A stretch of 64,000 nt of DNA from the NCBI GenBank assembly GCA_964016885.1, contig OZ024743.1, positions 225,680,001 to 225,744,000 on the forward strand, read 5' to 3'. This stretch comes from Eledone cirrhosa. Its lineage: Eukaryota. The notes under the pieces were generated by a model, which was not told where the DNA came from, did no database searches, and worked only from the letters and a program-made list of their open reading frames with translations. The position numbers and the translations under genes are program-made. Below are positions 1-40,514 of the stretch, in pieces. Numbering within the stretch: position 1 is the stretch's first letter; every line of letters begins with the position of its first letter.

Positions 1-3000
1 AACAAACTGAACAGCCTGAATTTATGCCATACGGTGTTAAGGCAACCACGTCACCTTTTTGTTCAACACTGACACAGGAACGATGTACTAGTTTCAAGCT
101 TGTTAGCTATCATCAGCACCGTTTACCCATCTGCCAGATAGTTGAACGTTCGAAAGTATATACTTTCCTTATGAAAATTAACGGCTGAACAGCCTAATTT
201 GCATATTGAGTGAGTTAAATCGGTCAGGCATACCGAAAACGATAAATTGAAACAAAATGAAAACAAAATTTCATTTCTCACTCTTAGTATGGCACTTACT
301 TAAATGTAAGTATGCATGTATACGTACATACATATATGTATACAGACGTACAGTAGCATGCACATATATATATATATATACATATATATATACATATGCA
401 TACAGGTACACATACATATATGCACGTATCAGTTTAGCGGCGCTAACGTCGCTTTGTTCGTTTGTAAACAAACTGAACAGCCTGAATTTATGCCATACGG
501 TGTTAAGGCAACCACGTCACCTTTTTGTTCAACACTGACACAGGAACGATGTACTAGTTTCAAGCTTGTTAGCTATCATCAGCACCGTTTACCCATCTGC
601 CAGATAGTTGAACGTTCGAAAGTATATACTTTCCTTATGAAAATTAACGGCTGAGCAGCCTAATTTGCATATTGAGTGAGTTAAATCGGTCAGGCATACC
701 GAAAACGATAAATTGAAACAAAATGAAAACAAAATTTCATTTCTCACTCTTAGTATGGCACTTACTTAAATGTAAGTATGCATGTATACGTACATACATA
801 TATGTATACAGACGTACAGTAGCATGCACATATATATATATATATACATATATATATACATATGCATACAGGTACACATACATATATGCACGTATCAGTT
901 TAGCGGCGCTAACGTCGCTTTGTTCGTTTGTAAACAAACTGAACAGCCTGAATTTATGCCATACGGCAGATGGGTAAACGGTGCTGATGATAGCTAACAA
1001 GCTTGAAACTAGTACATCGTTCCTGTGTCAGTGTTGAACAAAAAGGTGACGTGGTTGCCTTAACACCGTATGGCATAAATTCAGGCTGTTCAGTTTGTTT
1101 ACAAACGAACAAAGCGACGTTAGCGCCGCTAAACTGATACGTGCATATATGTATGTGTACCTGTATGCATATGTATATATATATGTATATATATATATAT
1201 ATGTGCATGCTACTGTACGTCTGTATACATATATGTATGTACGTATACATGCATACTTACATTTAAGTAAGTGCCATACTAAGAGTGAGAAATGAAATTT
1301 TGTTTTCATTTTGTTTCAATTTATCGTTTTCGGTATGCCTGACCGATTTAACTCACTCAATATGCAAATTAGGCTGCTCAGCCGTTAATTTTCATAAGGA
1401 AAGTATATACTTTCGAACGTTCAACTATCTGGCAGATGGGTAAACGGTGCTGATGATAGCTAACAAGCTTGAAACTAGTACATCGTTCCTGTGTCAGTGT
1501 TGAACAAAAAGGTGACGTGGTTGCCTTAACACCGTATGGCATAAATTCAGGCTGTTCAGTTTGTTTACAAACGAACAAAGCGACGTTAGCGCCGCTAAAC
1601 TGATACGTGCATATATGTATGTGTACCTGTATGCATATGTATATATATATGTATATATATATATATATGTGCATGCTACTGTACGTCTGTATACATATAT
1701 GTATGTACGTATACATGCATACTTACATTTAAGTAAGTGCCATACTAAGAGTGAGAAATGAAATTTTGTTTTCATTTTGTTTCAATTTATCGTTTTCGGT
1801 ATGCCTGACCGATTTAACTCACTCAATATGCAAATTAGGCTGCTCAGCCGTTAATTTTCATAAGGAAAGTATATACTTTCGAACGTTCAACTATCTGGCA
1901 GATGGGTAAACGGTGCTGATGATAGCTAACAAGCTTGAAACTAGTACATCGTTCCTGTGTCAGTGTTGAACAAAAAGGTGACGTGGTTGCCTTAACACCG
2001 TATGGCATAAATTCAGGCTGTTCAGTTTGTTTACAAACGAACAAAGCGACGTTAGCGCCGCTAAACTGATACGTGCATATATGTATGTGTACCTGTATGC
2101 ATATGTATATATATATGTATATATATATATATATGTGCATGCTACTGTACGTCTGTATACATATATGTATGTACGTATACATGCATACTTACATTTAAGT
2201 AAGTGCCATACTAAGAGTGAGAAATGAAATTTTGTTTTCATTTTGTTTCAATTTATCGTTTTCGGTATGCCTGACCGATTTAACTCACTCAATATGCAAA
2301 TTAGGCTGCTCAGCCGTTAATTTTCATAAGGAAAGTATATACTTTCGAACGTTCAACTATCTGGCAGATGGGTAAACGGTGCTGATGATAGCTAACAAGC
2401 TTGAAACTAGTACATCGTTCCTGTGTCAGTGTTGAACAAAAAGGTGACGTGGTTGCCTTAACACCGTATGGCATAAATTCAGGCTGTTCAGTTTGTTTAC
2501 AAACGAACAAAGCGACGTTAGCGCCGCTAAACTGATACGTGCATATATGTATGTGTACCTGTATGCATATGTATATATATATGTATATATATATATATAT
2601 GTGCATGATACTGTACGTCTGTATACATATATGTATGTACGTATACATGCATACTTACATTTAAGTAAGTGCCATACTAAGAGTGAGAAATGAAATTTTG
2701 TTTTCATTTTGTTTCAATTTATCGTTTTCGGTATGCCTGACCGATTTAACTCACTCAATATGCAAATTAGGCTGCTCAGCCGTTAATTTTCATAAGGAAA
2801 GTATATACTTTCGAACGTTCAACTATCTGGCAGATGGGTAAACGGTGCTGATGATAGCTAACAAGCTTGAAACTAGTACATCGTTCCTGTGTCAGTGTTG
2901 AACAAAAAGGTGACGTGGTTGCCTTAACACCGTATGGCATAAATTCAGGCTGTTCAGTTTGTTTACAAACGAACAAAGCGACGTTAGCGCCGCTAAACTG

Positions 3001-3128
3001 ATACGTGCATATATGTATGTGTACCTGTATGCATATGTATATATATATGTATATATATATATATATGTGCATGCTACTGTACGTCTGTATACATATATGT
3101 ATGTACGTATACATGCATACTTACATTT
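1..3128. repeat. Tandem array of a 466-bp hammerhead-containing unit (retrozyme/PLE pLTR-like) with one internal inversion at ~966
   Basis: Period 466 (AACAAACTGA at 1, 467, 933; CAGATGGG at 967, 1433, 1899, 2365, 2831). 1-966 is the reverse complement of the units in 967-3128. The right end runs into (TA)n. Only two variants seen (189, 2608). The left arm runs off the window edge. Confidence 0.97.
977..1021 (+). ncRNA. Type I hammerhead ribozyme (also 1443-1487, 1909-1953, 2375-2419, 2841-2885 on +; 79-123 and 545-589 on -)
   Basis: AACGGTG-CTGATGA-T-AGCT-AACA-AGCT-T-GAAA-CTAG-TA^-CATCGTT. 7-bp stem I, 4-bp stem II, palindromic minimal stem III (ACTAGT). Predicted cleavage GUA after 1014. 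Confidence 0.9.
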
Positions 3129-3178
3129 ATATATATATACATATATATATATATATATATATATATATATATATATAT

Positions 3179-3349
3179 ATGAAAAAGTTTGTCCTTCATC
3201 AGTGGTCTTCCAACCGTCATAGGCATTTCATCGCTTTAAAGACCATATTTTAAAGCGATGAAATGCCTAGGACGGTTGGAAGACCACTGATGAAGGACAA
3301 ACTTTTTCATATGTAACCCATTTGCAACGCCGCAGCTCCATTATTATCA
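3179..3349. mobile_element. Fold-back insert in (TA)n (inverted arms plus ~39-nt tail), PLE-terminus-like
   Basis: 3179-3240 is the reverse complement of ~3249-3310 with 1 mismatch, followed by a unique tail. (TA)n on both sides. Contains CTGATGA but no complete HHR. Confidence 0.75.
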
Positions 3350-3387
3350 TATATATATATATATATATATATATATATATATATATA

Positions 3388-3595
3388 TAGGAACAAGTAG
3401 GACCCCGACGACTGAGCTCAAGCCGTTTCGACGGCTAATTCTGGACTAAATCATTTAGTCCAGAATTAGCTGTCGAAACGGCTTGAGCTCAACCGTCTGG
3501 GTCCTACTTGTTCCTATTACCCACTCTACTACCCTAAGTATTGAGTACTTTGGTGCGTTATGGTCCATCTGGTTCCTTACCACATTTCCTTCGTT
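3388..3595. mobile_element. Fold-back insert in (TA)n, family A (3' half of HHR plus ~80-nt tail)
   Basis: TAGGAACAAG...CTAAAT/C/ATTTAG...CTTGTTCCTA then a tail ending CCTTCGTT-(TA)n. Homologous to 7643-7829 and 16963-17303. Confidence 0.85.
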
Positions 3596-39006: not shown

Positions 39007-39072
39007 TATTTTATCTGATGAAAGCGCACCATAATTTGCCTTGGTGGCCCTTGAAATATGTATAATGAAATA
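39007..39072 (+). ncRNA. Type I hammerhead ribozyme at the end of an AT-rich (TA)n insert (37898-39113)
   Basis: TATTTTAT-CTGATGA-AAG..CACCA..TGGTG..CTT-GAAA-TATGTA-TA^-ATGAAATA. 8-bp stem I. Confidence 0.75.
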
Positions 39073-39127
39073 AATATGGTTTTATAAATATAGTTTCCAT
39101 TCGTTAATATATTGTATATATATATAT

Positions 39128-39750
39128 AGTGTTATGCTTTGGGAGGGTCATGTTGCCAATAAGAAACACACGCACCAGTTGCTTTCACTTCAATTTATTA
39201 TAAATTAAATTTATAAATTTAGGAATTTATAAATTTCCGGTTGGTTGGTTGGTTCCACAACCAGGCGATTGTTCATATATTGTCAAAGTTCTTTCGTCAC
39301 ACATTCTGTGACCTCTTCAGTGACTGGGGATTCTTTTCTTTGTTTTTTGTGCCTCTCCTTTGTTCTGTCCTACGCCATCTTGTTTTTGTGTGCTTAGTTT
39401 GCGCATGTGTTACATCCGGGTGTCTGAGTGTGTTTATAAATTTATTTATTTGTTTATATACATGATACTGGTTGGTTGTTTGTTCTATCTGTGTGTGTGT
39501 TTTCATTTTGTCCTTAATTGTAAGCTGTGATGTTGCTGTTCCGTTCATGTTTTCTATTTAATTTTGGTTGGAGTTCATTTACGTTTATTGCCTCTGTGAT
39601 TTGTCTAAACATTGCGTCTTTTCTGTGTGTAGATTCTATTTTTATTTCTATGTTCTCTAATTTACCCTTATGTTCTATTTTAGCATGTTGGTGGACTACA
39701 GATGATTCTTTACTATCTTGAGGCTCTCGCCAGTGTTCATTTATTAATAA
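39128..39750 (-). mobile_element. PLE 3' end: GIY-YIG C-terminus (39514-~39750) plus pLTR
   Basis: NEH...SSVVHQHAKIEH...IEIKIESTHRKDAMFRQITEAINVNELQPKLNRKHE resembles the PLE endonuclease C-terminus. HHR-like motif downstream. Lies in (TA)n. Confidence 0.8.
39283..39324 (-). ncRNA. Minimal hammerhead-like motif in the PLE pLTR
   Basis: Minus strand: GTCA-CTGAAGA-G-GTCAC..GTGAC-GAAA-GAAC-TT^-TGAC. Stem III is weak. Confidence 0.65.
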
Positions 39751-39895
39751 ATGAATACCAAATATTATTTGGTCAGTAGTCCGTGTAATTATATACATAT
39801 ACATATATATATATATATACATACATATATATATATATATATATATATATATATATATATATATATATATATATATATATATATATATATATATA

Positions 39896-40514
39896 AGAGA
39901 GTATTGAAGTTTGCTTGAAGCATTGTGGAACAATAAGTAAATATCTTTAAGTCGTTTGGAAGCTTCGACAATGCAAATGGGTAAATCTCCGGGTAACAAG
40001 GTCCGATGGTCCGATGGTGGAGAGAGAGATGTAAGTGGGTGTACGTTGAGATGCGTGGTGTGTATAAGATGTGTGAGATGTGTAGAATGAAGGGATGAGT
40101 ATAAAGGATAAAATTAAGAATAACAACACAAGAGAGAGTTACCTTGGGAGAGATTTAATAGTTCCTATATATTTCGGATTCACATCCATCAACTGGGTTT
40201 TTTTTTCCGGGGTGGGGGAAAAGGTTGTCTGTCGGATTGTCCGACAGACAACCTTTTCCCCCACCCCGGAAAAAAACCCCAGTTGATGGATGTGAATGCG
40301 AAATATATAGGGACTATTACATCTCTCCCAAGGTAACTCTCTCTCGTGTTGTTATTTTATTTTACCCTTTATACTCTTTCCTTCATTCTTCCACACATCT
40401 CATACACACCACGCATCTCAACGTACACCCACTTACATCTTTCTCTCCCCCACCGGACCTTGTTACCCGGAGATTTACCCATTTGCATTGTCGAGGCTTC
40501 CAAACGACTTAAAG
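39896..40514. mobile_element. Fold-back insert in (TA)n (~290-bp arms, 3-nt loop, ~45-nt left tail)
   Basis: ~39941-40236 is the approximate reverse complement of 40240-40514, with several differences. Confidence 0.85.

Follow-up and report, generated by a model that had tools for sequence, protein, structure and literature searches.

The stretch of the Eledone cirrhosa genome considered here (assembly GCA_964016885.1, contig OZ024743.1, positions 225,680,001 to 225,744,000 of the forward strand; its 64,000 nucleotides are called the window) contains inverted inserts, or fold-backs, that lie in (TA)n tracts and carry a hammerhead ribozyme (HHR) or part of one. Their two arms stand head to head and consist of the 3′ end of a Penelope-like element (PLE) or of hammerhead repeats, and they probably arise, as we propose, by reverse transcription primed from both ends of a cut (TA)n target, with subsequent joining of the two complementary DNAs (cDNAs). 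PLEs encode reverse transcriptases (RTs) that are the closest relatives of telomerase. The fold-backs are real and very regular, and they represent the known insertion signature of PLEs in new families. Since the orientation of such inserts is already known, polarity alone would be an ordinary finding; new here are the paired outer ends, the evidence against self-priming and the same signature in arrays of the retrozyme type.

Outward polarity of two-armed inserts

The preliminary description of this DNA had claimed that in seven inserts of the window the RNA-sense strand points outward on both arms. We find this in all seven: the RNA-sense sequence lies on the minus strand in the left arm and on the plus strand in the right arm. 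The inserts are as follows, with PLE-A as our label for the PLE parent of those at 3388, 7643 and 16963.

1..966, minus strand: left arm of a tandem array of 466-bp HHR units (retrozyme type), 8.6 units in all, reaching ~3,020 nt to the left of the window; it stops at (TA)n at unit position ~358, the tail-bearing end; 2 canonical type I HHRs lie within the window (cores 116 and 582)
965..3128, plus strand: right arm of this array, 4.6 units with 5 canonical type I HHRs; short end, at unit position ~300
3390..3453, minus strand: short arm of a PLE-A 3′-end insert with the 3′ half of the HHR; stops 77 nt before the element end
3453..3594, plus strand: tail-bearing arm of this insert; 77-nt tail at 3517-3594
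7645..7826, both strands: older, decayed fold-back of the PLE-A family; short arm minus (7645-7708), tail-bearing arm plus
16965..17197, minus strand: 233-nt arm of a PLE-A insert that stops at the short end; contains TATA-like and initiator-like motifs and a complete U3-A8 HHR, the core of which is near 17065
17195..17301, plus strand: tail-bearing arm of this insert; 26 nt common to both arms, then the 77-nt tail
17339..17619, minus strand: left arm of an insert of another HHR family; 140-nt tail (17339-17480), HHR core near 17586
17645..17842, plus strand: right arm of this insert, decayed HHR core near 17740; the joint lies somewhere in 17620-17644
29322..30598, minus strand: left arm of a tandem array of 310-bp HHR units, 4.1 units with 4 canonical type I HHRs; ends at the short site, unit position ~130-139
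30596..36488, plus strand: right arm of this array, 19 units with 19 canonical type I HHRs; ends at the long site (~165)
36579..36820, minus strand: left arm of an insert related to the 310-bp unit; U3-A8 HHR core near 36779, 38-nt tail
36819..37320, plus strand: right arm of this insert, ~1.7 units of ~296 bp; U3-A8 core near 36842

The HHR, or part of it, had also been placed on both arms throughout. This is true of the arrays and of 36578-37320, where both arms carry a U3-A8 core, whereas the inserts at 3388 and 7643 hold the 3′ half only, the one at 16963 has a whole HHR in its left arm, and the one at 17339 has a core on the left and a decayed core on the right. For 3388 and 7643 the strand is nevertheless fixed independently of the HHR, because the open reading frame (ORF) of the PLE-A parent, with its RT and GIY-YIG motifs, gives the sense.

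The ribozymes of the two arrays are minimal type I hammerheads with a palindromic stem III. Rfam at gathering score returned 0 matches. Ribozymes with a C3-G8 core are not a product of chance, since 56 distinct ones occur in 1.2 Mb as against 1 in block-shuffled sequence; matches with a U3-A8 core only weakly exceed shuffles genome-wide (8 versus 4).

The source assembly comprises 3.0 Gb and is AT- and microsatellite-rich. As an unselected sample we used 120 evenly spaced 10-kb stretches (the 1.2 Mb just mentioned), and orientation was defined by the RNA-sense strand, as set by an insert's own HHR or by a family anchor. Among 982 segments between (TA)n tracts, 66 were fold-backs, about 1 per 18 kb. 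The genome-wide tabulation of orientation that the preliminary description had called for gave an outward polarity in all 38 orientable (TA)n-flanked fold-backs (12 by their own HHR, 25 by family anchor, and 1 tie by eye); 28 were not orientable. When the sample was scanned from the HHRs instead, the symmetry axis lay 5′ of the ribozyme in 22 of 79 groups, and 2 further groups that seemed to contradict this did not stand up to inspection. Beyond the sample, we looked at 37 loci of the 310-bp ribozyme repeat (26 two-armed, 6 single-armed and 5 unresolved), and all 26 two-armed ones are head-to-head, as are all 111 contiguous opposite-strand pairs of the PLE-A 3′ end. For the 17339 family, the match table alone places the minus strand on the left and the plus strand on the right in 6/6 two-strand places, the window included.

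Several apparent inward cases were discarded on inspection (L-numbers are labels of examined genomic loci outside the window): L223 had been mis-centred on a small hairpin, L125 holds two neighbouring inserts separated by an interrupted TA tract, L228 is a local AT-rich palindrome, and L312 is a self-overlapping motif match, for which reason it was also dropped from the PLE-A pair count. In fifteen tail-to-tail PLE-A pairs, (TA)n lies between the two copies, which are separate inserts; L274, a DNA transposon bounded by terminal inverted repeats, is no fold-back of this class. The polarity rule thus holds, but only for inserts with two arms, and it is already in print for PLEs (PMC3846280, PMC8557442).

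Paired ends and the origin of the fold-backs

The outer ends of the two arms differ by a fixed tail, which the preliminary description had overlooked and which is the published one-sided tail. Every family has two fixed outer ends, 35-170 nt apart, and an insert has one of each. In the 310-bp family, all 19 of the 19 loci seen to both ends have one arm that stops within unit positions 127-139 and a partner that stops within 158-172. For PLE-A, 30 of the 111 pairs came from a palindromic query; in 79 of the 80 pairs found without it, one arm runs to the element end while its partner stops 77 nt short of it, and two tails occur in none. Likewise, 63 of the 66 fold-backs of the random sample are asymmetric by at least 28 nt, with family-specific lengths, a few large values being mis-measured. 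Tails in the window measure ~58 nt (466-bp array), 77 (PLE-A), 140 (17339), 35 (310-bp array) and 38 (36578). A signal duplicated immediately 3′ of the two end points is weak in PLE-A and the 310-bp unit (P ~0.02 each) and absent in the 466-bp and 36578 units.

With respect to the central joints, a microhomology of 2-3 nt had been reported. Bases common to both arms are indeed present (GG in the 466-bp array, AAT in the 310-bp array, TA at 36578-37320, and 3 nt at 16963) and enriched over chance, but their number is not fixed. Of 26 joints in the 310-bp family, 18 are blunt or overlapping, with a mean of 2.9 nt and a range of 0-9 as compared to 0.77 in random joints; 12 of these 18 have at least 2 nt, and 8 of the 26 joints contain inserted bases. 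PLE-A joints have a mean of 1.4 versus 0.64 nt in 43 joints, and 37 show apparent insertions. This excess fits what is expected of end-joining.

The inner ends follow no such fixed pairing. The tail arm of PLE-A pairs reaches further 5′ in 33 cases, the short arm in 32 and neither in 14, and in tandem arrays, too, either arm can be the longer one. This bears on a mechanism of self-priming, in which a cDNA folds back, is copied into a hairpin and is then cut at a second fixed site; for rotifer PLEs, an antisense RNA has been suggested in this role (PMC3846280). Such a process would give the same outward polarity and identical variants on both arms; many joints are near-symmetric palindromes, and templated insertions at some of them indicate that brief fold-back synthesis does occur. 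However, the copy must lie inside the first arm, whereas the tail-less arm goes further 5′ in 32 of 79 PLE-A pairs, by ~200 nt at 16963 and by 9 units in L170, so that simple snap-back would require frequent later deletions of the centre. Also, some centres have no loop, and 12 of 50 inner ends of the 310-bp family lie at unit positions 17-29, where the extended helix I of the sense RNA has its 3′ foot (scan P = 0.00045). We therefore regard self-priming as unlikely. The pile-up at the helix foot matches stalling on uncleaved, folded RNA; cleavage by the HHR as the cause of the 5′ ends was rejected, since 0/50 inner ends of this family lie within 5 nt of the cut.

Could the palindromes be mobile as ready-made units, either as DNA elements resembling miniature inverted-repeat transposable elements (MITEs) or as re-transcribed hairpin RNAs, their centres varying by later deletion? 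With 2,811 first-look candidates, the ~200-bp form is very abundant, and some joints recur across several loci. Most copies have different joints, though, and those of the 310-bp family are spread over the whole unit. Moreover, one recurring joint has the tail on the longer arm in L075 and on the shorter arm in L082 and hence arose independently, and the palindromes consist of the 3′ end of a parent that encodes an RT, which together make this origin improbable.

We consider it highly improbable that a single pLTR-derived monomer (pLTR, pseudo-long terminal repeat) was inserted and only later gave arrays and inversions through unequal crossing-over and inversion, as in the birth of a satellite. 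Tandem units can expand in place, local amplification is favoured in bioRxiv 10.64898/2026.07.22.740005, and changes of unit number after insertion are possible; yet this origin predicts neither two fixed outer ends in 19/19 loci nor 26/26 head-to-head inversions, nor locus-wide variants on both arms.

That the fold-backs are chimeras of sequencing or assembly is hardly credible, even though both arrays have nearly identical arms and none of the listed contigs from three runs bridges the window's own joints, because the arms of 6/8 measured window inserts differ at 1-4 positions and those of one at 15 (only the 26-nt pair at 16963 is identical), outer ends fall on family-specific sites, and the same contigs, whose sides cover only 22-27 nt and which come from one sample, possibly the source sample, give four other minus-to-plus 310-bp joints, 0 plus-to-minus ones, and (TA)n at both fixed 310-bp ends. 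A 0.5 share of matches in 11 other organisms was set aside as likely pure (TA)n words and gives no evidence of spread.

Polarity alone cannot tell twin priming from snap-back or antisense self-priming, because all give the same orientation. What makes twin priming from the cut (TA)n, as the preliminary description had suggested, the best-supported reading are the paired fixed ends, the arms that are not nested, and the in vitro behaviour of a PLE protein (PMC11167929). The further idea that the self-complementarity of (TA)n drives priming finds no support: at the end points, TA/AT in the RNA is mostly just 1-3 nt long, and initiation in vitro requires no homology to the cut DNA (PMC11167929). 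In the mechanism we propose, a PLE protein, predicted to be a dimer in PMC11167929, would cut both (TA)n strands, after which one 3′-OH would start at a distal RNA site and the other at a proximal one; the one-sided tail would be the interval between them. Both cDNAs would then copy the same sequence towards the RNA 5′ end, on two RNAs of one source or on one RNA with strand displacement, and their 3′ ends would be linked by host end-joining.

Variants support a common source of the two arms. Although several haplotypes exist, the two arms of a 310-bp locus never differ in haplotype (2 arm-specific flags are alignment-edge effects), and PLE-A arms differ by 1.9 within loci versus 4.6 between loci. 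The strict pairing and the common variants suggest one RNA per event. In the case of the retrozymes, a circular or multimeric RNA template could give arms of 0.2-19 units. As the units are near-identical (3 single differences across 23 units of the 310-bp window array, its end excepted) and arms reach 19 units, a circular template as in PMC7229834 fits, with a linear multimer as the alternative.

A different limit applies to PLE-A, of which 156/160 arms extend at most 23 nt upstream of the core while the parent offers kilobases. The PLE-A pLTR contains what we take, by resemblance, to be a TATA-like motif and an initiator-like motif. The arm limit lies ~25 nt downstream of the former and at the latter; the tail and the ORF start come after. 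This limit would represent run-off to a putative mRNA 5′ end. We thus lean towards the view that the priming sites of PLE-A lie near the mRNA 5′ end, such that run-off copies end at the putative start site in the pLTR and give rise to the mass of ~200-bp palindromes. A second family (core at 39015) seems to have a similar boundary, with most arms < ~200 nt, blurred by the 80% identity to the reference.

It is conceivable, though we put it forward only tentatively, that PLE integration is obligately paired, with a dimeric RT-endonuclease holding both cut ends, one per fixed RNA site. Circular retrozyme RNA might then be copied by double rolling-circle synthesis into whole arrays in one event, and the element's own mRNA leader, copied to the cap, might yield MITE-like palindromes as a by-product.

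Several observations weigh against our proposal. The pairing has exceptions (L269 is short/short, L157 long/long), and an inverted arm is absent from 6/37 310-bp loci, from 55/79 HHR groups of the random sample at the thresholds used, and by script from 15/90 PLE-A tail-query loci, 3-4 of which have a very short one on inspection. The study in PMC11167929 found no start-site difference between the strands, which leaves the strict pairing unexplained. Variants common to both arms could reflect one dominant source or conversion between arms, and the joints at 30596 and 17196 are bridged by none of the contigs listed (24/1,288 and 24/6,254 pieces). Concerning run-off, 6/90 PLE-A tail-query loci are long fold-backs, one subfamily-B insert oversteps the boundary by ~15 nt, and the Drosophila virilis Penelope promoter is TATA-less and internal (PMC2377424). 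A signal of a cap-derived G is weak: an untemplated G precedes 14/16 arms that end at one position, it can be scored only as G or A, the partner arm can supply it, and a clean untemplated CG centre occurs in 2 loci only, both from the biased palindromic query. A Fisher P of 6e-6 for this signal is overstated and not relied on.

Parent elements and other repeats of the window

Copies of the long arm of the 16963 insert continue, on the same strand, into an ORF that has RT motifs and, at its C-terminus, GIY-YIG motifs; both are visible by eye in the ORFs of L201-L203. The order in L201, pLTR-tail-ORF-pLTR-tail-(TA)n, is that of a partial tandem that forms pLTRs. Searching Pfam with the PLE-A ORF gave 0 families, and BLASTP gave a weak match (E = 8e-6) to a neighbouring RVT_1 + GIY-YIG protein; Atlas look-alikes of the ORF (0.95-0.98) carry HTH_animal, GIY-YIG or RVT_1 in part of the members, and a cysteine linker is visible in the ORF itself. 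The PLE-A HHR has a U3-A8 core, a natural compensatory variant described as active (PMC3088659), and its stems I-III are kept in 6/6 aligned copies. With an RT + GIY-YIG ORF, pLTRs containing an HHR and a one-sided tail, the parent of 3388, 7643 and 16963 is an endonuclease-positive PLE.

A second PLE family exists beside it: L201:7968-9842 (minus) is an open frame of 625 codons with Pfam matches to RVT_1 and GIY-YIG. A second PLE 3′ end with a canonical HHR of its own is found at 39128-39790 of the window, L200:4106-5758 and L228:8718-9240; in L200 it forms a fold-back with the GIY-YIG ORF on the outward strand and a ~60-nt tail. A link of the 310-bp unit to this ORF was rejected, as the ORF sits in a separate fold-back, itself outward.

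The 466-, 310- and 296-bp units are short, non-coding and tandem, with one type I HHR each, as is characteristic of retrozymes without long terminal repeats (non-LTR retrozymes); the 466-bp unit exceeds the RNA range of 170-400 nt given in PMC7229834. Related units alternate between C3-G8 and U3-A8 cores (L200:3000-3380; window 30596-30905 and 36819-37116). In L196-L199, single-armed 310-bp inserts meet (TA)n with their 5′ end at the same AT-rich unit position 27.

The window holds further inserts, of which the fold-backs had been overlooked by the preliminary description:

3181..3348, no strand assigned to the whole: fold-back with 60-nt arms and a one-sided tail of 40 nt; the right arm (plus) holds the first half of an HHR core and no more
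37897..39115, plus strand: one-armed insert whose HHR (core at 39015) is of another family
39896..40514, strand not assigned: fold-back between (TA)n tracts with a one-sided tail of 49 nt; its arms are 89% alike

No HHR was found in the fold-back at 39896..40514, which is therefore not orientable. Those at 48970-49096 and 63218-63420 are fold-backs, too, and were likewise passed over, as was the fact that a large number of inserts are single-armed. The one at 3181-3348 belongs, like L125:9150-9580, to an abundant family whose arms stop shortly past the first half of the HHR core. Inserts stand back to back on common (TA)n tracts at 3128-3610, 16875-17880 and 29274-37340, where each insertion leaves fresh (TA)n targets for the next.

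Other repeats include a 12-bp unit in 150 copies, 96% alike (43043-44876), that is unrelated to the fold-backs. A dispersed repeat of ~610 bp occurs in at least 5 copies (3624-4080, 7950-8516, 19440-20048, 51820-52420 and 55574-56182), which lie between microsatellites in both orientations and have no inverted arm. An inverted pair at 54217-55131 resembles the endonuclease of a long interspersed nuclear element (89% alike over 272 nt; (TA)n not on both flanks), and 63668-63998, which reaches the window edge, is an inverted copy of a repeat that is common in the window and resembles a short interspersed nuclear element. Decayed copies of non-LTR retrotransposons, with endonuclease- and RT-like stretches by eye, lie at 20060-24030 (minus) and 57900-62950 (plus).

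Relation to known elements

Head-to-head is the most frequent arrangement of PLEs, with the tail on one of the inverted pLTRs, and self-priming on an antisense template was proposed for it (Arkhipova et al. 2013, PMC3846280). An inverted, 5′-truncated copy in head-to-head position, the tail and (TA)n targeting are likewise described by Craig et al. 2021 (PMC8557442, Fig. 2 legend), who name the origin of the tandem and inverted structures of PLEs as an open task. Like these endonuclease-positive PLEs (PMC8557442, PMC3846280), our fold-backs have an inverted 5′-truncated copy at the 5′ end, a tail at one end, (TA)n targets, an HHR in the pLTR and a parent with a C-terminal GIY-YIG domain. They differ in that the tail measures 35-170 nt by family rather than 30-40 bp, and that the pairing has been counted here and is nearly strict. 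The explanation offered in those papers is endonuclease resolution or self-priming, and not two primed cDNAs as here.

The closest experimental counterpart is PAc, a Poseidon PLE of the anole studied in vitro (Frangieh et al. 2024, PMC11167929). Both target strands are cut and extended by PAc, two internal RT start sites bound the tail, and no HHR cleavage is needed. In common with our inserts, the sites lie downstream of the HHR and near the mRNA 5′ end, which for our inserts is a putative one, and the RNA template is uncleaved, which agrees with our lack of inner ends near the cut. In contrast to our loci, the study, in the part available, reports no strand preference for the sites and does not treat inverted arms or joints.

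Twin priming by L1 (PMC11702581) offers a second comparison: there, too, the second RT reaction is primed by the other target end, the RNA-sense 3′ ends point outward, and inversion joints show microhomology or insertions; an extra cap-derived G is found at full-length 5′ joints. L1 arms, however, abut without overlap and their second site is variable, whereas our inserts have two fixed sites, and their arms are copies of one sequence that overlap by tens of bases to many units. The mode thus works like twin priming, but not in its L1 form.

With metazoan non-LTR retrozymes (Cervera and de la Pena 2020, PMC7229834; Li et al. 2026, preprint) the arrays share tandem units of 300-470 bp, one type I HHR per unit and the absence of an ORF. 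PLEs have been proposed in both works as the mobilising partner of retrozymes. Inverted arrays are undescribed in both main texts, whereas the arrays here carry the insertion signature of PLEs. Neither the rule of paired sites nor inverted retrozyme arrays were found in the PLE and retrozyme literature covered, mainly open-access papers.

The counts presented here turn the two-site result obtained in vitro into predictions, namely one site per target end, overlapping arms and one source RNA. They also provide structural evidence that the machinery of PLEs inserts animal retrozymes as multimers, a role that the retrozyme papers, as far as available to us, propose without such evidence. Given a density of about 1 fold-back per 18 kb in the sample, the fold-backs also supply much hairpin RNA and many misannotated ‘MITEs’ in this genome.

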